Assembly: GCA_007376295.1 (NCBI GenBank)
Contig: VMGB01000001.1
Location: forward strand, 80,424-144,423
Length of the DNA: 64,000 bases
Reading direction: 5' to 3'
Source of the DNA: Parcubacteria group bacterium Gr01-1014_13
GTDB lineage: Bacteria > Patescibacteriota > Patescibacteriia > Magasanikbacterales > GWA2-37-8
Part shown: piece by piece, positions 3,106 through 40,562 of the stretch
Position numbering within the stretch: the first letter of the stretch is position 1
Layout: every line of letters starts with the position of its first letter
Made by a program: the position numbers and the translations under genes
The notes under the pieces: generated by a model
Database searches by the model: none
What the model was told of the DNA's origin: nothing
What the model saw: the letters and a program-made list of their open reading frames with translations, nothing else

Positions 3106-3463
3106 ACAAATTTAATGCTTTTTTTAAGGTAGATAATCCAAGTAATGCGCATTTTACCCGTCCTGGGCTGATAGGCACATGCAAAAGATCATATACTTTG
3201 GCCGCTTTTAATTTTTTTAGGCTAGAAATTTTTTTACCACCAATTTCGTCAGCCAGCAAAGACATAGCTGCTTGGCTAATAGCACAACCAGTGCCCACAA
3301 ATCCAAGATCTTCCACAACTCCATTTTTGATTGTTAGTTCAAGTGAAATTTTATCACCACAAAGAGGATTATCTTCGGTAACTTTTATTGTGGGATTGGA
3401 AATACTTCCGGCATGATGCGGATGTTGGTAATGGTCCAGAATTGTTTCGGAATAAATATCCAT
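3089..3463 (-). CDS. sufU: SufU/IscU-type Fe-S cluster scaffold protein
   Basis: 'NPLCGDKISLEL' and 'GTGCAISQA' are conserved scaffold Cys motifs. It sits immediately downstream of sufS. Confidence 0.75.
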   Translation of the reverse strand: MDIYSETILDHYQHPHHAGSISNPTIKVTEDNPLCGDKISLELTIKNGVVEDLGFVGTGCAISQAAMSLLADEIGGKKISSLKKLKAAKVYDLLHVPISPGRVKCALLGLSTLKKALNLYDKKS

Positions 3464-4684
3464 TTATTTAATTTTAAAAATTTTTAAGACTTTTTGCAGT
3501 GCTTTTTCAGCCATATCTATGTCTTTGGTTGTGTTGTATAAATAAAAACTCATTCGGGCAGTAGAGTTTACTCCTAAGCGGCCAACCAGTGGTTCGGCGC
3601 AGTGCAGACCTGAACGAATAGTCACACCTTCTTGGTTGAAAATTGTGGCAATATCATGCGGATGCACACCGGTAACGGTAAAAGAAAGAACGCCGCCGCA
3701 ATCAGTAATGTGAGAAGGGGAGAATAGTTTTACTGCAGGGTAGCGAGAAAATCTTTTTTTGGCATAGGCCAAAAGTTTTCGGTCGTGGGCGGCAATAGCA
3801 GCCAGACCGATATTTTCTAAATAGTCGATGGCAGCGCCAAAGGCAATTACATCGGCAATATTGGGTGTGCCAGCTTCGAATTTCCAGGGGCCAGTGCGAT
3901 AGGTGGCTGTTTGTTGTTGTACGCTCTCCACCATATCGCCTCCATACATATATGGAGTCATTTCAGCCATTATATTTTGTTTGACATATAAAACACCAAC
4001 TCCGGTTGGGCCTAGCATTTTATGGGCGGAGAAAGCAAAGAAATCACAATCAATATCGCGTACATTTATTTTGGCATGTCCGACCATCTGCGCGCCATCC
4101 ACTAGTACTTTAGCGCCAACAGCATGGGCCATGGCCGTTATTTTTTTAACCGGTACAATTGTTCCGGTAACATTTGACTGAGCGGTAACACATACCAGTT
4201 TTGTTTTTTCTGATAATAGTTTTTCATAGGCTTCTAGATCTAATAAATAATCAGAAGTTATCGGGATAATTTTTAAAATAGCACCTTTTTCTTTGGCTAG
4301 TTCTTGCCAGGGGACCAGATTGGCGTGGTGTTCTAGAGCGCTGACAATTATTTCATCACCTTTGGTAATATGTGTTTTTGCCCAAGAAAAAGAAACGCAG
4401 TTTATAGCTTCTGTGCAATTTTTGGTAAAAATTACCTCTTCTTCATTTTTTGCACCAATAAATTTGGCTACTTTTTTTCTTACATCCTCGTATTGAGCGG
4501 TAGCTTCTTCGGAAAGAGTGTGGATGCCGCGGTGGATATTGGCGTTGCTGGTTGTGTAATATTTTTGTAATGCCAAAAGTACAGCTGTAGGCTTTTGGCT
4601 GGTGGAAGCGCTGTCTAAATAAACCAACGGTTTGCCATTGATTTTACGTTTTAATATGGGAAATTGTTTTTGGATATTTTTCAT
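3464..4684 (-). CDS. sufS: cysteine desulfurase SufS (PLP-dependent)
   Basis: 'NIHRGIHTLSEEAT' and PLP-Lys motif 'SAHKMLGPTGVGVLY'. Class V aminotransferase fold length. Confidence 0.85.
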   Translation of the reverse strand: MKNIQKQFPILKRKINGKPLVYLDSASTSQKPTAVLLALQKYYTTSNANIHRGIHTLSEEATAQYEDVRKKVAKFIGAKNEEEVIFTKNCTEAINCVSFSWAKTHITKGDEIIVSALEHHANLVPWQELAKEKGAILKIIPITSDYLLDLEAYEKLLSEKTKLVCVTAQSNVTGTIVPVKKITAMAHAVGAKVLVDGAQMVGHAKINVRDIDCDFFAFSAHKMLGPTGVGVLYVKQNIMAEMTPYMYGGDMVESVQQQTATYRTGPWKFEAGTPNIADVIAFGAAIDYLENIGLAAIAAHDRKLLAYAKKRFSRYPAVKLFSPSHITDCGGVLSFTVTGVHPHDIATIFNQEGVTIRSGLHCAEPLVGRLGVNSTARMSFYLYNTTKDIDMAEKALQKVLKIFKIK

Positions 4685-5313: not shown

Positions 5314-6732
5314 TTATCCTACTGATCCCGTCATCTCTAAAGCAAGTAGGCGATTGAGTTCCACCGCATATTCCATCGGCAATTTTCGGATAATTGGGTT
5401 GGCAAAACCATTTACAATTAAGGTGGCGGCTTGTTCTTCGCTAAGTCCGCGGCTCATTAAGTAGAAAAGTTCATCTTCACCAATACTGGCTACAGTCGCT
5501 TCATGGGCAATAGCGACATCTTCTTCCTTTATATCCATAGTTGGATAGGTATCGGAGCGAGAAGCTGGATCAAGCATTAGGGCATCACAAACTACACGCG
5601 TCTTTACGTTTTTTGCGCCTTTTATTACCTTTACTAATCCGCGATAGGTGGAGCGTCCACCATTTTTACTGATTGATTTGGAGATAATAGTAGAGCTGGT
5701 ATCTGGAGCTAGGTGCATTACTTTTCCGCCCGCATCTTGGTGCTGGCCTTTAGAAGCAAAAGCCAGGGATTGAATTTCTCCTTTGGCACCGCGTTCACGC
5801 AGAATAATGCTAGGATATTTCATGGTAACCTTTGATCCCAAATTGCAGTCTAGCCAAAACATTTCAGCGTTTTCGTAGGCCATAGCTCGTTTGGTCACGA
5901 GATTGTAAACATTCCCAGACCAGTTTTGAATAGTAGTGTATTGAACACGCGCGCCTTTTTTGACAATAATTTCTACTACAGCTGAGTGCAGAGAATCGCT
6001 GGAATAGGTAGGGGCGGTACAACCTTCTACATAGTGCACAGAGCTGCCTTCATCGGCAATAATTAGGGTGCGTTCAAATTGACCCATGTTTTCTATATTT
6101 ATACGGAAATATGCTTGGAGCGGTAACTCTATGTGCACACCTTTGGGCACATAAATAAACGATCCGCCAGACCAAACTGCAGAGTTTAAGGCGGAGAATT
6201 TGTTATCTCCAGGCGGCACAACAGTGCCAAAATGTTTTTTAAAAAGTTCGGGATGGTTTTTTAGAGCGTCGTCAGTGGATTCAAAAATAACACCTTGTTT
6301 GGCCAGATTTTCGGCTAGTGAATGATAAACCATTTCGGATTCAAATTGAGCGCCCGTTCCAGCCAAAAACTTTTTTTCCGCTTCGGGAATTCCTAATTTA
6401 TCAAAAGTGTCTTTAATTTCTTTGGGCACATCATCCCAGTTTCGTTTAGATTTATCTTGAGGGCGAACGTAGTAATGAATATTTTCAAAATCAATACCAG
6501 TAAGATCGGCTCCCCATTTTGGCATTTCTTTTCCTAAAAATACTTCGTAGGCATGCAAACGAAAATCAAGCATCCATTGCGGTTCGCCTTTTTGACGGGA
6601 AATTTCACGGATAATATCAGCATTCAATCCCTTTTTGGAAGCAAAAAAACTTTTAGTTTTGGTACGAAAACTAAAAGCGGAATTATCGCCGGTTTGAGTC
6701 AGCATCTTTTTTGTTTTGAGTGGAACCGGCAT
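5314..6732 (-). CDS. sufB: Fe-S cluster assembly protein SufB
   Basis: 472 aa with the conserved SufB C-terminal region '...[24 protein letters not shown]'. Confidence 0.85.
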
Positions 6733-7960: not shown

Positions 7961-8329
7961 TTAAGCCTTTTTTTCGGGGATGAATTTGAGAGAGACAGAA
8001 TTTACACAGTGGCGGGTATTTTTTGGAGTATAGCCCTCGCCAGTAAAGACATGCCCCAGATGAGCGTCACAAGTATTACAAGTAATTTCGGTGCGCGAGC
8101 CATCAGCATCGGGCGTCTTTTTTACAGCGCCGGGAATTTCTTGATCAAAGCTGGGCCAGCCGCAACCAGAATGAAATTTACTCGTAGAAGTATAGAGCGG
8201 AGTATTACAACGGCGGCAAACATAAGTTCCGGGTACAAAAAAATCATCGTATTCACCGGTAAAAGGTCGTTCAGTACCTTTGTGAACAATTACTTTTTCT
8301 TCTTCGGGGGTTAGGGGATTAAGTTGCAT
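7961..8329 (-). CDS. msrB: peptide-methionine (R)-S-oxide reductase MsrB
   Basis: Two CxxC pairs ('CRRCNTPL', '[12 protein letters not shown]') and 'CGWPSF'. Start taken at internal Met (8329), abutting the upstream gene stop. Confidence 0.85.
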
Positions 8330-8334
8330 ATAAA

Positions 8335-9234
8335 TTATCTGGCTGTAACCAGTAATCGTAGTTTGTGTTTGAGCGCGCATTTCCAAGAGCAGAATGGTTC
8401 TCCTTTTTTGTTTAGACAATTTTCGCAACAGATAAAATGATCATGGCAGGTAGGGAGCAAACAATTTACAAAATTTTCATTTGCAGTGTGGCATTTACGG
8501 CAGCGGCCAACAATTTCATGTTCTCTTTCTGGGCTGCTAAAGGCCATAGTAACGCGGCCGTCAAATACATATAGCTTACCGGCAAAATCTTCATCCGGAT
8601 ATTTTTCCATATACGAAACAATGCCATTATGTAATTGGTAGACATCATTGAAACCATTTGTGACCAAAAATCCAGACGCTTTTTCACAGCGCACACCGCC
8701 GGTGCAAACGGTAACTACAGTTTTGTTTTTTAGATGTTCAAGTTTAGGTAAAATTTTTGGCAGATCACGGAAGTTTTTTAGCGGCGGTAAAATTGAATTT
8801 TTAAAAAATCCGACCGAGTGTTCGTAGTCATTGCGCATGTCGACAATATAAAATTCTTTGCCGCTATGAATCCAATCATGGAGATTTTCCGGAGATAAAT
8901 ATTTTCCCGTGGTAACGGCCGGATTTACATCCGCGTCCCCCAAATGCGCGCTCACAATTTCTGATCGCGCTTTTACGGATAATTTAGGGAAAGCATCGCC
9001 TGTACCAACGCTACGTTTGAAGTTCATATCGTTAAAACGCGGGTCGCTGGCAGTTTCGTCTATATATTTTTGGGTATTTCCCACTAAGCCCTCTACAGTT
9101 CCGTTTATGCCTTCGGGAGCGATAATAATACGGCCTTTCAAGCCTAATTTTTCACAAAGCAATCTTTGAGTACGACAAAATTCGCTGGGGTCAGCGATGT
9201 GGGTATATTTGTAATATAAAAGTATTTCGTGCAT
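8335..9234 (-). CDS. trhO: tRNA uridine(34) hydroxylase TrhO (rhodanese-domain protein YceA family)
   Basis: '[13 protein letters not shown]' N-motif, rhodanese active-site loop '[14 protein letters not shown]', C-terminal Cys cluster. Start set at '[10 protein letters not shown]' (9234). Confidence 0.8.
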
Positions 9235-19423: not shown

Positions 19424-19771
19424 TTATTTTTCAGGGTTTTCTTCATCCTCTGGTTCCTTTTCAGTTTCTTTAGTAACAACAATTTTTGGGTTAGGGGAGT
19501 AGAGAGGATTTTTTATTTTCCAGTTTCCTACAAATTGGCCAATACCTTTGTTTTCTAATTTGTTTTTTAAAGTTGTATGTCTTTGCGACCACTTCACCAA
19601 ACTCTCAAAGTTTAATTTGTATCTACCTGCAACAATTATATATGTAACTTCTTGAGCGGTAATGGCGCGTCTTATGGTTTGAGCATTAACACCAAAAAGC
19701 TTAGCCGCTTCTGATATAGATACACGTATTACTTCTTTTGGCTTTTCATTTGTGTCAGCTTGATCGATCAT
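19424..19771 (-). CDS. excisionase/MerR-superfamily helix-turn-helix DNA-binding protein
   Basis: 'ISEAAKLFGVNAQTIRRAITAQEVTYIIVAGRYKLNFESLVKW' fits the excisionase-family HTH. Start set at ATG 19771 ('MIDQ...'). ORF-track start 19801 and ATG 19789 lie inside operator copy 1. Confidence 0.55.
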   Translation of the reverse strand: MIDQADTNEKPKEVIRVSISEAAKLFGVNAQTIRRAITAQEVTYIIVAGRYKLNFESLVKWSQRHTTLKNKLENKGIGQFVGNWKIKNPLYSPNPKIVVTKETEKEPEDEENPEK

Positions 19772-19778
19772 AACGTTG

Positions 19779-19803
19779 TTTGTATACATTAGTGTATACA
19801 AAT
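19779..19803. promoter_or_regulatory. operator-like palindrome copy 1 (TTTGTATACAtTAGTGTATACAAAT, one central mismatch)
   Basis: First of three near-identical 25-26 bp inverted repeats. Abuts the HTH gene start. Confidence 0.55.
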
Positions 19804-19863
19804 ATTAACAAGCGCTAGTTTTTATGTCAAGAGTGAAGGTTATTTACCTGATAAATTATAGTT

Positions 19864-19889
19864 ATTTGTATACACTAGTGTATACAAAT
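19864..19889. promoter_or_regulatory. operator-like perfect palindrome copy 2 (ATTTGTATACACTAGTGTATACAAAT)
   Basis: Perfect 26-bp palindrome, 85 bp from copy 1. Confidence 0.55.
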
Positions 19890-19945
19890 ATACAGAAAAA
19901 AGCTGATAAACACTAGGGTTAGGCAAAATTGATCTACACTCAATC

Positions 19946-19971
19946 ATTTGTATACACTAGTGTATACAAAT
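19946..19971. promoter_or_regulatory. operator-like perfect palindrome copy 3 (ATTTGTATACACTAGTGTATACAAAT)
   Basis: Perfect 26-bp palindrome, 82 bp from copy 2. Confidence 0.55.
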
Positions 19972-20253
19972 TAAGTCGTATTTTAGTTTAAAAATGTTCG
20001 ACAAGTTAACAGGTTAAACCCTGCTTAAGTATCGGGGATCATTGTAGCTTAATCGGAAGTTCAAACACCCTCACTTTTGATAGGTATATTTAGGTACATA
20101 TATAATGTAATAAATTTGACCTAAATATGGGTTTCTGATAAACTGCTTATCACCCCGCTATGTACTGACTTATCGCTAGAAAAGGGCGAATTATGTGTAA
20201 TTAGGGTATATATAGGTAGGTGTAACATTATTGCTCACTTTACGTCTACTATA

Positions 20254-20835
20254 ATGTCCAGAAGCAACTTCAACGAAAAACTCCTACTTTTAAAGCTTCG
20301 TACGACAGAAGATCCTGAAGCTTTCGCTAAGTTATATGATATCTATGCAAAACGTATCTATAGCTTTGTTTTTTTTAAAGTTTCAAATCGTGAGGAAGCA
20401 GAGGATATAACATCGGAAGTTTTTCTAAAAGCTTGGCGGTATATAAATGAGAAAAAGAAAATAGAAAGTTTTAGCGGTCTGCTTTATAGATTAGCGCGCA
20501 ATTGCGTGATCGATCTATACCGATCAAGATCAAAACAAAAAGAAACCTTGTCGATTGATACGGAAATAACGATAGAAATTGGCGATGCTGGAAAATGGAA
20601 AGAAGATTTGGGAGAAGAGATAGTGAATAAGCTGGAGATGCAAAAAATAGTGGGAGCCTTACAAAAAATGAAACAAGAATACAGAGAAGTGGTAACCCTG
20701 AGATATGTAGATGAATTGGAAGTAAGCGAGATTGCCGAAATTACCGGCAAAGGACATATAGCAGTCAGAGTAACTTTGCACCGGGGTTTAAAAAAACTTA
20801 AAGAACTATTAAAAGAACAGCCAGCGGTTGAATAA
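20254..20835 (+). CDS. ECF-type RNA polymerase sigma factor (sigma-70 regions 2 and 4)
   Basis: Region 2 'LYRLARNCVIDLYRSR'. Region 4 HTH 'EYREVVTLRYVDELEVSEIAEITGKGHIAVRVTLHRGLKKLKE'. Confidence 0.8.
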   Translation: MSRSNFNEKLLLLKLRTTEDPEAFAKLYDIYAKRIYSFVFFKVSNREEAEDITSEVFLKAWRYINEKKKIESFSGLLYRLARNCVIDLYRSRSKQKETLSIDTEITIEIGDAGKWKEDLGEEIVNKLEMQKIVGALQKMKQEYREVVTLRYVDELEVSEIAEITGKGHIAVRVTLHRGLKKLKELLKEQPAVE

Positions 20836-22395: not shown

Positions 22396-25300
22396 ATGAG
22401 CGATGTATTAAAATTCGGGAAGAAAGTCTTCACGTCCAGTGTCGTCGGCGCCACTATGTTGTGGTCTGTCGGCGTTTCTGCATTGTTGCCAGCTGTTGCT
22501 AACGCTGCAGTTTGCCCAGCAATGAGTTCAGGAGACATGGTAAAGGTATCTGGAAAACCAGCTATCTATTCTGTGAACAACTCAATGAAGATTCTATATT
22601 TCCCTTCAGGTGATGAATTCAAGAGTTGGACTAGCCTTTCAGCAACTGCCCCTAATCAGTATGCTTCCCAAGGTTATCTAACAATCACTCAAGATTGTTT
22701 CGATTCTTTATCAGTTCCTAGCACATACCCAGGTGGCGTAAACTTCCGCCCAGGTTCATACGTTGTCAAGAGACCTTCTTCTGATCAATTGTATGTTGTA
22801 TTGCCAGGCAACAGTCTAGCTAAAATTAGCTCAACTGATGCTAAAGCTTTATACGGAACTAACTACAAAGTAATGACTGTTGCCGATGCTTTCTGGCCTC
22901 ACTATGTAAATAGAGGAGCCGATGTTGCTGGTACAGTTCATGAAGGTATGTTGGTAAGTAATGACGGCAAAACTTGGTATGTAGATGCTGGTATGAAATT
23001 ACGAGAAGTAACAGCTGCAGGCATGACCGCAAACAGATTCAAAGCTGGTTGGGTTCACGCTGTTCCAGCTTCTTACTTAGCAGGCACTTCAGTTGGTGCT
23101 ATGCTTGATTCAATGGAATCTACTTTAACTAACAGAACTCAGGACGGAGCTGTGACTCCAGGTCCAGCCCCAGTTGGCGGAAACCTAACTGTTTCTTTGG
23201 CCGCTGATAATCCAGCTGCTGCCAATTTAGCAGATGGTTCTGCTTACAACAGTGTCTTAAAATTAAACTTAAGAGCTGGTTCAGCAGCCACTAATGTTAC
23301 AGGAATTACTTTGACTAAGACTGGTTTAATTGCTAATACCAATATAACCGGCGTTAGTGTTTGGGATGCTCAAGGCAATCGCCATGGCGATGTTATGAGT
23401 TCTTTAACTTCTGACAACAAGGTAACTGTAAGTTTCGGCTCTTACCCAATCATGGTAGCCGCAGGTGGTTCTGAATCATTACTAGTTGCAGTAAATATCG
23501 CCACCACTGCTAACTCCGGTTTAGTTGGCTTCAATGTGAATGCTGCTACCGATATTATGAGTAATGGCACTGCTGGCGGATCATTCCCAATCGTTGGTAA
23601 CCAGATGTCTATCATTGACGGCAATGCCTCTTTGGGCGCTTTCACCGTTACTGGTCAGTCCGTTGGTGGTTCTGCCAACCAACCAGCTAGCACTGCTGCT
23701 GGAAACTTAAATATTGGTGACTTACAAAAAGAAGTTGCTAAATTTAGATTTACCGAAACTAGCGGCAATGAAGATCTGACAGTTTCCCGGTTGACTTTCT
23801 ATGCAGCTGGTACTATCCAAGACAGCGACTTAGCTAACATCAGCGTATACGGACCGGATGGCGCTTTGCTTGGCAATGGCGGTAGTTTGAGTAACCGTTA
23901 TGTAACGGTTAAATTCGCTACTTCATACGTTGTGCCAAAGAGCACCAACCGAGATCTCTCTGTAAAAGTTGACGTTATAAACGGTTCAACCCGCAATTTC
24001 AATATCCACTTACAGAGCGACTACGACATGCTAGTAAAAGGCAATACTACCGGATTCTTCATCTTACCTACCAGCTTTACCGATACAACCAGCACTAGCG
24101 CTTGGTTTAATATGGGTTCTGGTACCTTGACTGTAAACAAGACCCCAAGTTCTCCAGCTGGAAACATTTCCTCTGGCGCATCAAATGTTGTTTTGGCTAG
24201 ATTCGATGTTAAAGCCACTGGCGAAAACATGGAATTACGCAAGATGGGTCTTGGTATCAACAGAGGTAATGGATCTGTGTTAGCCTTAACAGGTAATGTT
24301 ACTGTTCGTGACGCTTCAGACGGAACTGTATATTTGACAGTTGCTGCGTCAACTGCGGATCTATACACTCCAGCCGCAGCTCAGCGTAACTTATCAAGCT
24401 ACATTAACCTTACTGCTAATCAGACAAAGACATTGGAAGTAATTGGTAGTGTTAACACAACCGCAACTTCTGGAAACAGCTATATAGTAGGAGTTGGTAA
24501 TTTCTATGCGAAGAGAGCTTCGACATTAGACTTTGCTGATAACCTGCCAAACAGCACTAACACCAGCACAGCTGCCAACCAATTAACAGTTAGCGCAACT
24601 TCGCTAACCTGCAACAGAGACACAGCTATGGGTAGCGTTACCCGCGCTGCTGGTACTACTTCAGTTATCGCTCAGTACATTTGTACAGCCGGTACCTCCG
24701 AAGATGTTCGCTTGAGCAATACCAATATTAACTTTGGTCCAGTTTCAGGCGGAACTGCTGCTAGCACATTCCAAAACATGTCGCTTTGGAACGGATCTAC
24801 TCAATTGGGTACAACTATAAGCACCGTTGCTTCCTCTTCTAACTCTTATAGTTTTGATCTTACTGTTCCAAAGAACGGAACTGTAATGTTACAGGTAAAG
24901 GCGTTGATTGTTTCCGGAGCAACCGCAGTAGTAACCACTTCCTTTGGAAGTTATAACTTTAACGGTAAAGATAGTGGAACTGCCGGAACTGGTAACCCAG
25001 TAGCCGGTCAGCAAGTCACTGTTGGATCCGGTAACTTATATATTACTGCTGTATCCGATGCTACAACCATTGGAAAGATTTACGGTCCTTCTCAAGCAAG
25101 TGTACAGTTAGGCAAGTGGAAATTCACCGCTACTAACGATGACATTACTTTGAAAAAGTTGACCTTAACCTCTCGCAATGCGCACGTTACCGGCGGAGAC
25201 CAGACTGCGTTGGGTACATTTGGCACACTATCCTTATACGATGGTTCAACCAAATTAGCTGATGCTAGTTATGTCACCGGTGACGTAGTATTTACTGGCT

Positions 25301-26157
25301 TTAGCGCTTCCATCCCAATGGATAGTTATAAAGTCTTTACACTAAAAGGCGGTACAACTGCTTCTGGTGTAATCTCCAGTAACACCACTACGGTCTTCGT
25401 TGTGAAGAGCGACAGCAATACAGATATGGAAGCCATGTCTTCCGCTGGTTCATTGTTGGGAACTGCAGATATTTCTGCAACTTCCTCTACAAGCAACAGT
25501 CTTGCTGAAACCAGATTTGCCACATCCACCCAGTACTTCTTCCATGATGCTTACCCAACTATGGTAGCCACATCACTTGGAAGCTCGCTAGGTTTGGATA
25601 CTACAGCTCAAATCCTTAAATTCACCATTACCAATTCCGGTACTCGTGACTTAAGATTTGGTTCAAGTACAATCGCAGTCAGCGTATCTGGCTTGCAAGG
25701 CAATTCAGGTCCTACCGCATCTAGTGGTACGATCAGAGGCTTCAGATTGTATGAAGAGGGCGCCCCTGGTACATTGGGAACACGTCTCGCCGGTGGTACT
25801 GCTAACGATTCCGCTGATGTGGTAATCGCTTCAAGCACTGCCAGCCCTTCAAACGTAACCTTTGACCCGACCAATGATGTAAACAGCCTGTTGGATAACT
25901 TTGTTATCTCTCCAGGTTCTAGCAGAACATTGATCGTTACTGCCGACACCTCCAATATGGGTACTACAAAGACAGCGGGAACTTCTGTGACCGTGTCTGC
26001 GAAGATCTCCGGTTCAACCGGTTGGAGCGGCACAGCTTGGAACACAGGTAACTTGTTCTACTACTACACTGCAGTAGGTGGTACTGAGAACACAGTTCCT
26101 TTCACTCACTCAGATTCTTACGATGTACAAGGTTCAACAATGAGCCGGTCCTTCTAA
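22396..26157 (+). CDS. giant (1253 aa) secreted cell-surface protein, Cys-free, Thr/Ser/Gly/Ala/Asn-rich with repeated Ig-like segments (S-layer/adhesin-like)
   Basis: Signal peptide 'VVGATMLWSVGVSALLPAVANA'. Extreme compositional bias, no Cys, recurring 'LT..T..GT' beta-strand-like repeats. Strong terminator follows. Confidence 0.6.
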   Translation: MSDVLKFGKKVFTSSVVGATMLWSVGVSALLPAVANAAVCPAMSSGDMVKVSGKPAIYSVNNSMKILYFPSGDEFKSWTSLSATAPNQYASQGYLTITQDCFDSLSVPSTYPGGVNFRPGSYVVKRPSSDQLYVVLPGNSLAKISSTDAKALYGTNYKVMTVADAFWPHYVNRGADVAGTVHEGMLVSNDGKTWYVDAGMKLREVTAAGMTANRFKAGWVHAVPASYLAGTSVGAMLDSMESTLTNRTQDGAVTPGPAPVGGNLTVSLAADNPAAANLADGSAYNSVLKLNLRAGSAATNVTGITLTKTGLIANTNITGVSVWDAQGNRHGDVMSSLTSDNKVTVSFGSYPIMVAAGGSESLLVAVNIATTANSGLVGFNVNAATDIMSNGTAGGSFPIVGNQMSIIDGNASLGAFTVTGQSVGGSANQPASTAAGNLNIGDLQKEVAKFRFTETSGNEDLTVSRLTFYAAGTIQDSDLANISVYGPDGALLGNGGSLSNRYVTVKFATSYVVPKSTNRDLSVKVDVINGSTRNFNIHLQSDYDMLVKGNTTGFFILPTSFTDTTSTSAWFNMGSGTLTVNKTPSSPAGNISSGASNVVLARFDVKATGENMELRKMGLGINRGNGSVLALTGNVTVRDASDGTVYLTVAASTADLYTPAAAQRNLSSYINLTANQTKTLEVIGSVNTTATSGNSYIVGVGNFYAKRASTLDFADNLPNSTNTSTAANQLTVSATSLTCNRDTAMGSVTRAAGTTSVIAQYICTAGTSEDVRLSNTNINFGPVSGGTAASTFQNMSLWNGSTQLGTTISTVASSSNSYSFDLTVPKNGTVMLQVKALIVSGATAVVTTSFGSYNFNGKDSGTAGTGNPVAGQQVTVGSGNLYITAVSDATTIGKIYGPSQASVQLGKWKFTATNDDITLKKLTLTSRNAHVTGGDQTALGTFGTLSLYDGSTKLADASYVTGDVVFTGFSASIPMDSYKVFTLKGGTTASGVISSNTTTVFVVKSDSNTDMEAMSSAGSLLGTADISATSSTSNSLAETRFATSTQYFFHDAYPTMVATSLGSSLGLDTTAQILKFTITNSGTRDLRFGSSTIAVSVSGLQGNSGPTASSGTIRGFRLYEEGAPGTLGTRLAGGTANDSADVVIASSTASPSNVTFDPTNDVNSLLDNFVISPGSSRTLIVTADTSNMGTTKTAGTSVTVSAKISGSTGWSGTAWNTGNLFYYYTAVGGTENTVPFTHSDSYDVQGSTMSRSF

Positions 26158-38568: not shown

Positions 38569-39135
38569 ATGTCCGACGATTCATTGGATAAATTAATGTA
38601 TTCCTTCGTGATGGACGATGTCTTAAAAGGCGTTTTTATCAGCGTCCCACCAGGATACGTAGCCTGTGTTTACGATTTGGGCAGGGGAGTATTAAAAAAA
38701 GTTCTCACACCCGGTTTACATTTGAAAATTCCTTTTTGGCAAAAGGCCAAGCTGTTTAATACTCAAACTTTGGAATATAGTATTTCCCGACAGTTTAATC
38801 CTGAACATGAAAAGTCATTGGGCGACATCCCGATCGCTGCCGGCACCAAAGATGGCCAACGAGTTGGGGTAGAAGGTACAATCTTATTACGCCTCGATGT
38901 TCATCAGGTACCATCTATCTGGCAAACTATCGGCGAGGACTTTGTGGCCAAGATTGTCCGTCCTACTATCCGTAGCCGCATACGCATGGTATTTAGCAAA
39001 TTTGATTACCAAGATATAGTTGGGGCTAAGCGAGATTCGGTAGAGATGGAGTTGAAAAATGAATTGGAACGAATCTTCTATGCTCGCGGAATATATGTAG
39101 AAAATGTGTTGCTTAGCGAAATAGCCAAGATCTAG
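38569..39135 (+). CDS. SPFH/band-7 (prohibitin-like) domain protein
   Basis: 'SVPPGYVACVYDLGRG...LTPGLHLKIPFWQK' and the downstream SPFH core pattern. Confidence 0.7.
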   Translation: MSDDSLDKLMYSFVMDDVLKGVFISVPPGYVACVYDLGRGVLKKVLTPGLHLKIPFWQKAKLFNTQTLEYSISRQFNPEHEKSLGDIPIAAGTKDGQRVGVEGTILLRLDVHQVPSIWQTIGEDFVAKIVRPTIRSRIRMVFSKFDYQDIVGAKRDSVEMELKNELERIFYARGIYVENVLLSEIAKI

Positions 39136-39159
39136 GCTAAAAATACGAAATATATTAAA

Positions 39160-39196
39160 AAACCGACCCTGTGGATAACTCGGTCGGTTTTTGTAT
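39160..39196 (+). terminator. rho-independent terminator (AACCGACC ... GGTCGGTT + TTTTG)
   Basis: 8-bp stem, T-tract. Confidence 0.6.
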
Positions 39197-39240
39197 TGGG
39201 TATATTTTGGCTAACCTATCACATTATTTGCCCAAAGCCC

Positions 39241-39268
39241 TTGACAAAACAATCAAAATGTGATAAAC
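39241..39268 (+). promoter_or_regulatory. putative promoter (TTGACA-16-TGTG-ATAAAC) for the high-GC gene
   Basis: Consensus -35 and a TG-extended -10-like element about 60 nt upstream of the GTG start. Confidence 0.35.
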
Positions 39269-39329
39269 TGCGACCTCAAGCTAGGGATTTACCCAAAGGC
39301 TTGAGATAACCCCGTTTCGGAGGATAACT

Positions 39330-39752
39330 GTGAAGAATTTGCTCATTTCTCTACTCATCTTGACCGTCACGATCTCGTTCCAACCGGCTTACGCCGACGG
39401 GTATGGGCTCGGGCGGGCCGAACTAAACAAGGTTCTCGAGCCTCTCCGGTCCAGCATCAACCGTTGCTACCTCGCCAATGCAGGTGAGCGCGGCGGTCGT
39501 CTGGATCTCACGCTCGAAATCAGCCGCTACGGCTCGGTGTACACTACTGATGTTTCTACACCAGATCTGCGCAACAAGTTCGTCGCGCGCAAGATCAGCG
39601 CCTGCGTTCGAGGTATCGTCAAGGACTTGGCGTTCCCGACACGCAAAGCAGCGACTACATCCAAGTTCTCGTACATCTTTCATAAGGCACGCTCCCCAGG
39701 CGATGGCCCGCAGCTAAGCTGCTGGAATCCCCGCGGTTGTCCGGGTAAGTAG
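39330..39752 (+). CDS. high-GC secreted protein with AgmX/PglI-C (TonB-C-like) domain; probable horizontally acquired gene
   Basis: G+C is conspicuously higher than flanks (by eye, not computed). GTG start with SD GGAGG. Signal peptide 'LLISLLILTVTISFQPAYA'. Pattern 'INRCY..G.LDLTLEIS..GSV...VS....FV..ISACV..V.DLAFP' recalls the Myxococcota-type AgmX/PglI C-terminal domain (from memory). Own promoter and terminator. Confidence 0.55.
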   Translation: MKNLLISLLILTVTISFQPAYADGYGLGRAELNKVLEPLRSSINRCYLANAGERGGRLDLTLEISRYGSVYTTDVSTPDLRNKFVARKISACVRGIVKDLAFPTRKAATTSKFSYIFHKARSPGDGPQLSCWNPRGCPGK

Positions 39753-39779
39753 CCAATATAACAAGTTGGCCACGACCCA

Positions 39780-39807
39780 AGGCTCCTTAACCAGGAGCCT
39801 ATTTTTT
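39780..39807 (+). terminator. rho-independent terminator (GGCTCCT-TAACC-AGGAGCC + T7)
   Basis: Perfect 7-bp stem followed by TATTTTTTT. Confidence 0.7.
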
Positions 39808-39849
39808 TGTCTAATACACTTCTTGACGCGTCTTTTGGGTTATGATATA

Positions 39850-39876
39850 TTATCACTCGTAAGGTTTGAGTGATAA
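39850..39876. promoter_or_regulatory. CIRCE-like HrcA operator (TTATCACTC-N9-GAGTGATAA)
   Basis: 9-bp inverted repeat with 9-nt spacer, one position off the canonical TTAGCACTC-N9-GAGTGCTAA in each arm. Ends 6 nt before the hrcA ATG. Confidence 0.75.
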
Positions 39877-39881
39877 TTTGT

Positions 39882-40562
39882 ATGGATAGCCGTAAAGAAA
39901 AAATTTTAAATTTAGTTATAGAAAATTATATCGCCAATGCTGAGCCGGTTGGCTCCAAATTTTTGGTATCAATCGGAGATTTAGATCTTAGCGAAGCTAC
40001 TGTGCGCAATGAACTGCGCGCTTTAGAAGAAGAAGGCTATCTTACTCATCCGCATACTTCAGCTGGCCGTATCCCGACAGAAAAGGGCTATAGATATTAT
40101 ATTAAAAACCTCAATTTGGCTAAAAGCCAGATTTCCAAAAATGATAGCAAAGTTTTAGAAAATTCTTTGGACAAAGCTACTGATCAAGAATTGGCTTTTA
40201 AAAATATGGCTAGGACAATGGTAGAGTTGTCTAATGAAACAGTAGTCATTGCTTTTTCTCCGGAAAATATATACTATACTGGCTTGTCTAATCTTTTTAA
40301 CAAACCAGAATTTGATCGGTTAAGTCTGATAGCGGACATTTCCGAAGTTTTCGACAACTTTGAAGATTCTTTGGAAGGTTTTTTTGAAAAAGTAGATAGT
40401 AATCCACAGTATTTTATCGGTGATGAACATCCGTTTGGAGAAATGCTTAGTGTTTTATCTATGCGGTTTGGTAAGGATGGTTTGGTAGCGATTTTGGGAC
40501 CTAAGAGAATGGATTACAGATACAATTTTGGTTTGATGAAAAAATTATTGGAATTAATTTAA
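39882..40562 (+). CDS. hrcA: heat-inducible transcription repressor HrcA (short form)
   Basis: 'REKILNLVIENYIANAEPVGSKFL' winged-helix N-terminus and 'GYLTHPHTSAGRIPTEKGYRYY'. Start set at ATG 39882; the GTG at 39870 lies inside CIRCE. Confidence 0.8.
   Translation: MDSRKEKILNLVIENYIANAEPVGSKFLVSIGDLDLSEATVRNELRALEEEGYLTHPHTSAGRIPTEKGYRYYIKNLNLAKSQISKNDSKVLENSLDKATDQELAFKNMARTMVELSNETVVIAFSPENIYYTGLSNLFNKPEFDRLSLIADISEVFDNFEDSLEGFFEKVDSNPQYFIGDEHPFGEMLSVLSMRFGKDGLVAILGPKRMDYRYNFGLMKKLLELI

Follow-up and report, generated by a model that had tools for sequence, protein, structure and literature searches.

How did a 423-bp ORF that is far richer in GC than its surroundings come to lie in the genome of a CPR bacterium, and what may its product do there? 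The ORF occupies positions 39330–39752 of the window, by which we mean the whole 64-kb stretch of DNA that was analysed. The initial annotation had regarded it as a recent acquisition from a high-GC donor or, failing that, as the product of a contaminated or chimeric assembly, and the host that it called CPR-like is confirmed as CPR. Our results show that the gene was horizontally acquired from a high-GC, Kofleriaceae-like Myxococcota lineage. The explanation as a whole, that is, a transfer from a Kofleriaceae-like bacterium to a CPR bacterium of a gene for an exported TonB-CTD-like binding module, is in our judgement quite probable.

The GC content of the ORF was 57.2% as compared with 40.4% for the window (z = 4.45), which made it the highest of any 423-bp segment in the entire 64 kb. 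GC content climbed at ~39340–39370 and dropped at ~39800, indicating that the GC-rich block consists of the CDS and its terminator. Among 68 ORFs it was the top outlier in both GC3 (0.68 vs 0.376 ± 0.067, z = 4.56) and codon-usage fit (z = −4.34), and its tetranucleotide distance (z = 4.1) exceeded that of all other 500-bp segments. The gene is thus the compositional outlier that it had appeared to be by eye. The spurious ORFs that its GC-richness was said to generate on both strands were also present (four on the minus strand, of 86, 58, 49, and 41 aa, and one of 79 aa on the plus strand). The features of the locus are as follows.

38569–39135, Band_7/SPFH gene, the upstream flank
39158–39192, plus strand, terminator hairpin of the Band_7/SPFH gene, AAAAACCGACC-N13-GGTCGGTTTTT, the left edge of the insertion site
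39241–39269, plus strand, sigma-70-type promoter, TTGACA-17-TGTGATAAACT, with an extended -10 (upstream TG), 10/12 match
39277–39303, plus strand, island-specific leader element (inverted repeat or hairpin) located 3' of the -10 box and 5' of the Shine-Dalgarno sequence, CAAGC-N17-GCTTG, inner stem GGG/CCC
39319–39323, plus strand, Shine-Dalgarno sequence GGAGG, 6 nt 5' of the GTG, as read from the sequence
39330–39752, plus strand, AgmX/PglI-C-type CDS of 140 aa with a GTG start, the foreign high-GC gene
39330–39395, plus strand, predicted Sec signal peptide, residues 1–22 (MKNLLISLLILTVTISFQPAYA, then DG after the putative cleavage site)
39705–39740, plus strand, invariant C-terminal tail GPQLSCWNPRGC, residues 126–137, with Cys131 and Cys137, outside the NF033768 model
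39780–39808, plus strand, intrinsic terminator, AGGCTCCT-TAACC-AGGAGCCT followed by T7, with an 8-bp stem at 39780–39800
39823–39877, plus strand, resident hrcA promoter, TTGACG-17-TATATT, with an overlapping CIRCE-like repeat, the right flank of the insertion site

The ORF with its GTG start and GGAGG, the stem-loop terminator, and the position between the SPFH gene and CIRCE/hrcA were all found as the initial annotation had described them. Its claim of a near-consensus promoter of the gene's own also holds, the -10 box being TAAACT at a 17-nt spacing from TTGACA. The Shine-Dalgarno sequence has the same position in the orthologs, where it serves GTG or ATG. The promoter was kept in all copies of the island to which the gene belongs (described below) and occurred twice in the L004 locus. 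The promoter and leader are host-like in composition, as judged from their GC content of 38–45%. The leader hairpin folded at −19.8 kcal/mol (z = −2.1), and its inner stem alternated between GGG/CCC, GGA/TCC, and GGAA/TTCC among seven distinct copies. In 669 kb of related loci the leader motif was restricted to island genes, apart from regex coincidences elsewhere, and an Rfam search of 39100–39900 (E ≤ 1), leader hairpin included, gave no match. The terminator of the gene (fold z = −3.1) forms the right edge of the GC-rich block, and compensatory changes were detected in its stem in the relatives L001 and L013. On the left side of the site, the Band_7/SPFH terminator is a perfect 11-nt inverted repeat (fold z = −3.3) that is kept in island-bearing relatives. 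On the right side, the hrcA promoter (39823–39851) and the CIRCE-like repeat TTATCACTC-N9-GAGTGATAA (39849–39877) are nearly invariant in relatives, whether the island is present or absent. MAFFT had aligned the island promoter with this hrcA promoter/CIRCE region. An origin of the island promoter as a duplicate of that region was rejected, since the local-alignment scores were no better than those of dinucleotide shuffles, of which 90, 284, 611, and 687 out of 1000 reached the observed scores.

The best curated match of the 140-aa protein was NCBIfam NF033768, the AgmX/PglI C-terminal domain (E = 1.4e-6), with an alignment that covered model positions 3–89 of 92. NF033768 was also the top NCBIfam family for 25 of 25 family members (best E = 1.7e-11). 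The score of the window protein was 28.3 bits, under the curated cutoff of 40 bits; its relatives scored 27.5–42.3 bits, and the cutoff was passed by P0045 and P0046 only. Pfam TonB_C and TolA models matched neither the window protein nor the 25 relatives even at E ≤ 1, and a profile search against PDB sequences returned no TonB or TolA, the sole match being a spurious DARPin. The score below the NF033768 cutoff and the lack of a Pfam TonB_C match indicate a divergent relative rather than a certified member. The AF2 model of the protein resembles TonB C-terminal domains and has the TonB-CTD fold. Thus, the proposed AgmX/PglI-C (TonB-C-like) identity is borne out by the best family match and the modelled fold, and not by the curated cutoff or Pfam.

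Export is predicted from an N-terminus that combines K2 with a hydrophobic core and a putative A-Y-A cleavage site; the AF2 pLDDT of this segment was <50, and an N-terminal hydrophobic segment is present in all full-length homologs. Every family member has C46 and C92, which are located in helices 1 and 2, and the 'SS' in the name of the NF033768 model presumably denotes a conserved cysteine pair. The tail GPQLSCWNPRGC is invariant in 25 sequences spanning 35–84% identity, and variants of the form GPQxSCWxxxGC occur throughout the wider family. It was modelled as a sixth strand with a pLDDT of only ~58.

The family comprises 2704 representative clusters, and all of its non-CPR members have a high-GC-type amino-acid composition. 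The contigs that carry non-CPR homologs were all of 66–74% GC. All seven named genome matches were MAGs of Kofleriaceae, 'Deltaproteobacteria', or 'Proteobacteria', likewise of 66–74% GC. In a neighbour-joining tree, the CPR sequences formed a single clade in 300/300 bootstraps; this clade branched from within the high-GC homologs, with P0008/P0010 as the best sister (47% bootstrap). Identity to the window protein was 65–84% in CPR relatives and just 38–47% in the high-GC genomes, which, together with the 47% sister support, indicates that the actual donor is unsampled. The genes neighbouring the Kofleriaceae homologs encode Peptidase_S46, a UvrD-like helicase, PolB, and DUF455. No conserved operon was found around these homologs, and the neighbourhood thus gives no functional hint.

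In most of the ~60 relatives having both flanking genes, the spacer between Band_7 and hrcA is 80–300 bp. These short-spacer relatives include L018, L019, and L020, whose Band_7 identity is 96%, and the near-empty loci L018 and L020 carry a similar terminator directly 5' of the hrcA promoter. Among the relatives compared, the gene was confined to the closest subclade. The proposal of a high-GC foreign origin is therefore upheld by the composition of the gene, the empty site in most relatives, the high-GC homologs, and the nested CPR clade. The donated gene was a stand-alone secreted AgmX/PglI-C-domain gene of a Kofleriaceae-like Myxococcota lineage. It was received by the common ancestor of a narrow CPR subclade that is Magasanikbacteria-like, and it came to lie downstream of the Band_7 terminator and upstream of the hrcA promoter, inside a small GC-rich island.

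This island is variable and comprises three genes in its fullest version, of which the window organism has kept the present one alone. Hence 'self-contained', as the gene had been called, is correct for its present state but not for its history. Up to three products are encoded, secreted or lipoprotein; besides the AgmX-like gene there are a lipoprotein gene and a 126-aa gene, and the gene content is mosaic ({1,2,3}, {1,3}, {3}, {1,2}). A promoter-leader module is common to the AgmX-like gene and another island gene, and the promoter-leader of the window seems to have arisen by recombination between the two copies of the module in the three-gene version. A close relative, L096, keeps island genes 1 and 2 and lacks the AgmX-like gene, which refutes the idea that this is the universally retained gene of the island. 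Its loss in such a close relative indicates that the gene is dispensable. For the lipoprotein and 126-aa genes, no tblastn match was obtained in eight Kofleriaceae-type loci and no high-GC relatives were detectable. Among 5.8 billion proteins the lipoprotein had just 4 homologs, of which those examined sit in the same CPR island. An en-bloc transfer of the three genes from Kofleriaceae is thus not supported. In more distant relatives, unrelated GC-rich inserts occupy the same Band_7–hrcA junction; Pfam scans of these inserts and of all island proteins gave no matches. No integrase or mobility gene was found in any island version, and neither a tRNA near the site nor a convincing flanking direct repeat or target-site duplication was detected. 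The only candidate was an inverted repeat of 12 nt that encloses the island in L004; it had a chance expectation of ~0.1 and was not kept in L001.

The reading frame was intact in every carrier sampled (eight CPR cluster representatives). Lineage-specific third-position changes were 32 GC→AT against 10 AT→GC overall, and 9:1 in the window; this net flux indicates that the composition of the gene is not at equilibrium. The gene is intact, under purifying selection, and slowly losing GC at silent sites, and is partly ameliorated. The word 'recent' in the initial annotation needs qualification, since the gene predates the split of lineages whose flanking silent sites are nearly saturated.

This early date would not apply if the gene had entered one lineage after the CPR split and had then spread by homologous recombination through the Band_7/hrcA flanks. 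The silent divergence of the ORF was indeed ~0.4–0.55 that of the flanks: four-fold-site divergence was 0.25–0.47 in the ORF vs 0.40–0.57 in the flanks, and dS was 0.36–0.76 vs 0.8–1.8, although the flank dS is near saturation and the ORF/flank dS ratio is thus unreliable. The patchy presence of the gene among equally close relatives and the mosaic island content also point toward later spread. However, the rank order of pairwise distances is the same for the gene and the flanks, and the mosaic is explicable by differential deletion between the repeated 5' modules without any transfer. We consider later spread unlikely and retain a single entry into the common ancestor of the subclade.

Whether the acquired gene is still of use to its host is a separate matter. 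Constraint is much looser on the ORF (dN/dS of 0.25–0.45) than on the flanks (0.01–0.08), the island is shrinking in several lineages, and in L096 not only was the gene lost but a neighbouring island gene looks frameshifted, as might be expected if the gene were a passenger in decay that no longer serves the CPR host. On the other hand, dN/dS is clearly below 1 with the frame intact in all sampled carriers, neither the four Cys nor the tail of 12 residues varies, and the promoter, the Shine-Dalgarno sequence, and the terminator, the latter with its compensatory changes, are maintained. It is therefore rather improbable that the gene is a mere passenger, and a retained function is the reading we adopt.

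An origin of the gene within CPR, by local selection or biased repair, or a transfer from CPR to Myxococcota, is very improbable. All three island genes and the unrelated junction inserts in other relatives are GC-rich, and the lower silent-site divergence of the ORF could mean synonymous constraint, both of which would suit a native gene. Yet the gene is absent from most relatives, including close ones with an intact short spacer, the CPR sequences form one narrow, long-branched clade inside a large high-GC family, and the flux from GC to AT shows a composition off equilibrium. Moreover, the Kofleriaceae homolog is compositionally native (GC3 of 0.98 in L005), whereas the gene is an extreme outlier in the CPR window. 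The mis-joining of a high-GC fragment into a CPR contig, which the sharp GC steps (~40% to ~60% and back within ~460 bp) and a domain typical of Gram-negative Myxococcota could suggest, has a negligible probability, because the Band_7–gene–hrcA order recurs in independent assemblies from different samples and projects (JGI 3300044511, SRR35358857, SRR22388166, ERZ27253378, ERZ978390, GCA_900206355.1, and Ga0233424) with the gene at identical junctions in no fewer than four diverged lineages, these loci can be aligned over both flank junctions, the divergence of the orthologs follows that of the flanks, and the 57% GC of the gene is far from the 66–74% of the high-GC carriers, so that chimerism and contamination are excluded.

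The product of the transferred gene is probably exported by Sec and cleaved after Ala22. The mature protein is predicted to fold as a ~13-kDa TonB-CTD-like alpha-beta-beta-alpha-beta module, which two disulfides, C46–C92 and C131–C137, would probably stabilise. Since it has no membrane anchor, proline-rich spacer, or cytoplasmic domains, energy transduction like that of TonB, GltG, and GltJ is not expected. By analogy with the TonB/TolA C-terminal domains, extracellular binding by beta-strand addition is the most likely function, and the protein would then be a small extracellular binding module for an extended peptide or protein partner. A bolder reading is that the Band_7–hrcA junction is a dedicated capture site for foreign GC-rich genes of exported proteins under the shared promoter/leader-hairpin module, and that the TonB-CTD-like protein came from the symbiont's own Kofleriaceae-type host and was repurposed for extracellular interaction with it. 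This seems doubtful to us; if true, the transfer would point to the host of this CPR lineage.

The locus presents a cleanly documented Myxococcota-to-CPR gene transfer, for which the site is empty in relatives, the donor group is plausible, amelioration is measurable, and selection is purifying. It may be used to illustrate how exported proteins are acquired by the reduced genomes of episymbionts. From what is established for CPR bacteria, the host should have neither an outer membrane nor TonB-dependent transporters. A fold regarded as Gram-negative and periplasmic is kept here as a module that is secreted and free, in a host for which no outer membrane is expected, which argues that the fold is a general-purpose binding module. 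The analysis also defines a sizeable uncharacterised subfamily with a signal peptide, an AgmX/PglI-C domain, and the invariant GPQxSCWxxxGC tail, which lies at the edge of the curated NF033768 model and is missed by Pfam. None of these findings overturns current understanding.

Among known families, the closest is NF033768, 'myxo_SS_tail' of Myxococcota, with which the window protein shares near-full model coverage, an equal domain size, and the alpha-beta-beta-alpha-beta topology; a conserved Cys in each helix may be a further common trait. It differs in its sub-cutoff score and in belonging to a subfamily of small stand-alone secreted proteins, here in a CPR bacterium, that adds the invariant GPQLSCWNPRGC tail with a second Cys pair outside the model. 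The Agl-Glt gliding machinery of Myxococcus xanthus includes GltG (PglI) and GltJ (AgmX), whose periplasmic C-terminal TonB-CTD-like domains span residues 544–640 and 584–674, respectively. In these proteins the N-terminal domains are cytoplasmic, and a transmembrane helix followed by a long linker in the periplasm connects them to the TonB-CTD-like domain (PMC11761067). The window protein is homologous to these C-terminal domains and aligns to GltG model positions 560–643. It scored 15.5 bits with the GltG equivalog NF033760 (cutoff 650) and 10.7 bits with the GltJ equivalog NF033761 (cutoff 450), in both cases over the C-terminal domain only. Unlike GltG and GltJ, it has no cytoplasmic FHA or ZnR/GYF domains, transmembrane helix, or long periplasmic linker, and its signal peptide leads directly into the domain. 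As a secreted protein of 140 aa, it is unable to couple to a motor. Compared with the C-terminal domains of TonB, HasB, and FusB and with TolA domain III, identity is 11–20%, and the N-terminal membrane anchor and Pro-rich spacer of TonB and TolA, which partner with ExbB/ExbD or TolQ/TolR and with TonB-box receptors, are absent from its sequence.

As to the mode of acquisition, the Lawrence and Ochman model holds that atypical genomic islets arise by horizontal transfer and ameliorate over time. The present locus differs from typical transfer islets in that the site showed neither an integrase nor a tRNA target nor direct repeats, and in that its junction receives unrelated GC-rich inserts in more distant relatives. 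It resembles the islets of the model in its atypical GC, GC3, codons, and tetranucleotides, its patchy distribution, its empty site, its nesting within the donor group, and the directional drift of its silent sites towards the composition of the host. As an instance of gene transfer across phyla, it is clean but not especially unusual.

The initial annotation placed a GC-rich gene between the SPFH gene and the CIRCE/hrcA operon. This position, the GTG start, ribosome-binding site, promoter and terminator, and the spurious ORFs on both strands, were all found in the window.

The AgmX-like gene and its neighbours in the window
38569-39135: upstream neighbour, Band_7/SPFH gene
39241-39269: promoter of the AgmX-like gene, TTGACA-17-TAAACT with TG extension
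6 nt 5' of the GTG start, + strand: Shine-Dalgarno GGAGG of the AgmX-like gene
39330-39752, + strand: AgmX-like CDS, GTG start, 140 aa
39780-39800: terminator of the AgmX-like gene, 8-bp hairpin, then T7
39823-39851: downstream neighbour, hrcA promoter, overlapped by a CIRCE-like repeat, TTATCACTC-N9-GAGTGATAA

The ORF has 57.2% GC versus 40.4% for the window and is the top 423-bp window of the 64 kb (z=4.45), and the gene is also the top 500-bp window in tetranucleotide distance (z=4.1), which confirms the suspected compositional outlier. It was the top outlier among 68 non-overlapping ORFs in GC3 (0.68 versus 0.376±0.067, z=4.56) and in codon-usage fit (z=-4.34). The GC-rich block (~39340-39800) takes in the CDS and terminator but not the promoter and leader, whose composition resembles the host's. 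The runner-up tetranucleotide outliers (z 3.4-4.0) were 19601-20300, which spans intergenic DNA next to the gene for an ECF-type sigma factor and a small HTH-like ORF, and 24201-25000, within a 1253-aa low-complexity secreted protein (22396-26157).

Homologs retrieved from 5.8 billion proteins comprised 7 cluster representatives with 65-84% identity and another 17 with 38-47%. The contigs bearing the close homologs (~40% GC) come from samples and projects independent of one another and share the gene order YidC, Band_7, island (a GC-rich insert of up to three genes), HrcA, GrpE, DnaK, DnaJ, and there too the AgmX-like gene has 57-58% GC and GC3 of 0.72-0.75. Since both island junctions can be aligned across these independently sampled, identically ordered loci and the terminator stem carries compensatory changes, the assembly chimera or contamination raised earlier as an alternative is excluded. 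Pairwise dN/dS among four CPR orthologs was 0.25-0.45, indicating that the 140-aa frame is a protein-coding gene under purifying selection, which is far more relaxed than in the flanks (Band_7 0.007-0.04, HrcA 0.045-0.08). The gene is shown to be intact, selected and equipped with expression signals. TSC84724.1 and TSC84727.1 of Parcubacteria group bacterium Gr01-1014_13 match the window Band_7 and GrpE proteins exactly, and the other labels in the Band_7 90% cluster are Candidatus Magasanikbacteria or Patescibacteria; the host is therefore a CPR bacterium, as proposed. In L001, a related locus otherwise near-identical to L002, hrcA (7981-8661) is split into 165-aa and 39-aa ORFs versus an intact 226 aa in L002 (6961-7641), probably owing to a frameshift or assembly error in L001.

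A Pfam search with the window protein found nothing. The best NCBIfam match was NF033768, the AgmX/PglI C-terminal domain (E=1.4e-6, positions 3-89 of 92), at 28.3 bits versus a cutoff of 40; the GltG and GltJ equivalogs were matched weakly at their C-terminal ends. All 25 family members matched NF033768 (27.5-42.3 bits), 2 of them above the cutoff. The AlphaFold2 model from the family alignment (mean pLDDT 77.9; ~90 over residues 31-110) contains helices 29-51 and 83-97 and strands 56-64, 69-76, 109-117 and 125-133. Its top PDB matches in Foldseek were the C-terminal domains of TonB, HasB and FusB (probability up to 0.99, E ~0.03), scores similar to those published for the GltG (544-640) and GltJ (584-674) reference domains (~1e-2; PMC11761067). 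A TonB-CTD-like domain of the AgmX/PglI type, as the initial annotation had recognised, is shown by the best profile match and the model, although the score stays below the curated cutoff. A hydrophobic signal-like N-terminal segment is visible in the family alignment, consistent with the claimed signal peptide; Sec export itself we infer. The alignment also has four invariant cysteines (C46, C92, C131, C137). The tail GPQLSCWNPRGC (residues 126-137; 39705-39740), which lies beyond the NF033768 model and includes a 7-residue Cys loop, is strictly invariant between proteins just 35-45% identical elsewhere in the family alignment A1, and variants of the form GPQxSCWxxxGC occur throughout the wider family, in hundreds of high-GC homologs; the motif is uncharacterised. 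Relatives such as P0073 (575 aa), P0101 (777 aa), P0116 and P0131 carry 3-6 tandem domain copies without this tail, a multi-repeat architecture of the AgmX/PglI-C domain.

When one genome per species (GTDB) was scanned with the family tail motif, 7 loci were found, all of 66-74% GC; 4 were labelled Kofleriaceae and the rest 'Deltaproteobacteria' or 'Proteobacteria' MAGs. At one high-GC locus (L005), the homolog matches its neighbours' composition (74% GC, GC3 0.98). An exhaustive profile search gave 2704 representative clusters at E<=1e-3, of which 253 reached E<=1e-10. Every non-CPR member among the top hits has a high-GC-type amino-acid composition, GARP/FYMINK being 1.5-5.3 in most of them versus 0.96-1.24 in the CPR clade. 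The bootstrapped NJ tree groups the CPR sequences into a single long-branched clade (300/300), which is nested within the high-GC diversity. Its best sister, P0008/P0010 (Kofleriaceae SMAG_U13378 type), has support of only 141/300 and shares with it the short architecture and the ...RGC(P/S/R)GQ ending. The homolog distribution, composition and nesting together make transfer from Myxococcota to CPR well supported, with the exact donor unsampled, and uphold the proposed horizontal acquisition from a high-GC donor. Two CPR carriers and one Kofleriaceae-type carrier (L003, L013, L097; ENA ERZ27250187, ERZ27253378, ERZ27248265) have neighbouring accession numbers, which suggests a common study or habitat but is too weak to infer an association.

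The acquisition had been supposed recent, which does not hold strictly. Between island-bearing lineages, dS was 0.8-1.8 for Band_7 and HrcA and 0.36-0.76 for the ORF, and four-fold-site differences were 0.40-0.57, near saturation, and 0.25-0.47, respectively; pairwise silent divergence of the ORF ranks in the same order as that of the flanks. Lineage-specific third-position changes were 32 GC->AT versus 10 AT->GC (9:1 in the window, 8:0 in L004), indicating net GC loss, that is, amelioration in progress, and among the four copies compared GC3 is lowest in that of the window. We read these data as one acquisition before the island-bearing lineages split, followed by slow decay. The lower silent divergence of the ORF than of its flanks leaves room for later spread of the island among lineages by recombination.

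Among 80 related loci gathered via the Band_7 gene, most have a Band_7-hrcA spacer of 80-300 bp and 22-43% GC. The ORF is restricted to the closest subclade (window, L001/L002/L016, L004, L013/14/15/22); it is missing from the about equally close L018 (Band_7 96%, HrcA 87%), L019 and L020, where a short spacer or a small AT-rich ORF takes its place. The small ORF, between Band_7 and hrcA in L018 (2756-3051) and L020 (1747-2138), both without the island, encodes ~40-56 aa (MW(K/N)L...) with SD AGGAGG and its own terminator. An insertion of ~90 nt in the hrcA leader of L019 (~3400-3490), between CIRCE and the hrcA start, carries internal palindromes GTCATTCTCGCCGCAGCGGGAATCCAG...CTGGATCCCGAAC...GGGATGAC and looks like a small MITE-like repeat. 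No integrase, tRNA or target duplication was found at the insertion site.

Island and junction features
L004, between Band_7 and hrcA: gene 1, lipoprotein, ~104 aa, GC-rich
L004, between Band_7 and hrcA: gene 2, secreted, 126 aa (~120 aa in relatives), GC3 0.87
L004, between Band_7 and hrcA: gene 3, AgmX-like, GC-rich
L004:4598-6364; L001:6787-7983; L096:666-1820; L017:2744-3175; window 39136-39884: island or junction regions
L004:5257-5286 versus L004:5812-5841; window 39330-39359: shared 5' ends of genes 2 and 3
Window 39277-39303; L004:4742-4767 and 5761-5786; L001:6916-6941: leader inverted repeat/hairpin CAAGC...GCTTG
L017:2885-2910; L096:~809-834; L013:~739-765: further copies of the leader hairpin
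L038:4568-5108; L040:4568-5533; L054:905-1543: junction inserts of distant relatives
L065:893-1494; L077:4568-6171; L090:3178-4567: junction inserts of distant relatives

The island holds genes 1, 2 and 3 in L004, 1 and 3 in L001, 3 in the window and L013, and 1 and 2 in L096. For genes 1 and 2, both GC-rich orphans, homologs are nearly lacking and a Pfam scan gave no match. A 94-nt promoter-leader module is doubled in L004, before genes 1 and 3. Of the two L004 copies, the window module is more like copy 1 in the part that precedes the -10 box (identity 85% and 77%, versus 61% for copy 2) and more like copy 2 in the hairpin and what follows it (85% and 90%, versus 75% and 65% for copy 1). The proteins of genes 2 and 3 are unrelated apart from a common start, MKNLLISL, encoded by ~8 codons at 83% nt identity, and the L001 ORF joins the gene-2 5' UTR and first ~8 codons to the gene-3 body. 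These patterns are the expected product of deletions between repeated 5' sequences; a three-gene island has thus probably been reduced to one gene in the window. In L096, a very near relative of the window (Band_7 98.9%, HrcA 90.2%), the module persists along with gene 1, which appears frameshifted, and a homolog of gene 2, but gene 3 is missing, indicating that the island is a mosaic accessory region and the AgmX-like gene dispensable. The leader hairpin is conserved solely at island genes, where it lies between -10 box and SD; it has an inner stem of GGG/CCC, GGA/TCC or GGAA/TTCC with one compensatory pair and no match in Rfam. Its position is that of CIRCE at hrcA, and it may act as an operator or as an RNA leader element.

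Unrelated GC-rich inserts (47-58% GC) lie at the Band_7-hrcA junction of more distant Magasanikbacteria-like contigs. They include a 226-aa ORF (L040), a 375-aa minus-strand ORF (L090) and a CGLCGR...PGD protein common to L038 and L054; a Pfam scan of these inserts gave no match. Foreign DNA seems to have landed at this junction repeatedly. Elsewhere in L004, a GC-enriched orphan gene (1957-2376, 139 aa, 51% GC) lies between PLD-like and metallo-beta-lactamase-fold genes and is lacking at the corresponding position of L001.

The window protein has no anchor, spacer or cytoplasmic domains. Judging from its sequence, Sec would export it with cleavage after A-Y-A22, and two disulfides may form, one linking the two helices and one closing the CWNPRGC loop. 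The C-terminal domains of TonB and TolA bind partners by beta-strand addition. By analogy, the exported protein may be a soluble extracellular binding module that captures an extended segment of a partner in this way, whereas energy transduction as by TonB, GltG or GltJ would be impossible. The tail is modelled as the sixth strand (pLDDT ~58), and that it fills the binding edge in cis is speculation. The Kofleriaceae gene neighbourhoods of homologs gave no functional hint.

No description of this feature was found in the searchable literature. It is an islet of the usual compositionally atypical kind, with an empty site, nesting within the donor group and amelioration but without a mobility signature. 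The unrelated GC-rich inserts, the leader hairpin and the orphan genes 1 and 2 together prompt another, unlikely reading, in which the junction captures genes for exported proteins, perhaps derived from the host of the symbiont. The window protein differs from GltG, GltJ and TonB in curated score and in every architectural criterion. It is homologous to the AgmX/PglI C-terminal domain family and would work alike, within an uncharacterised subfamily that is stand-alone, secreted and marked by a distinctive tail.
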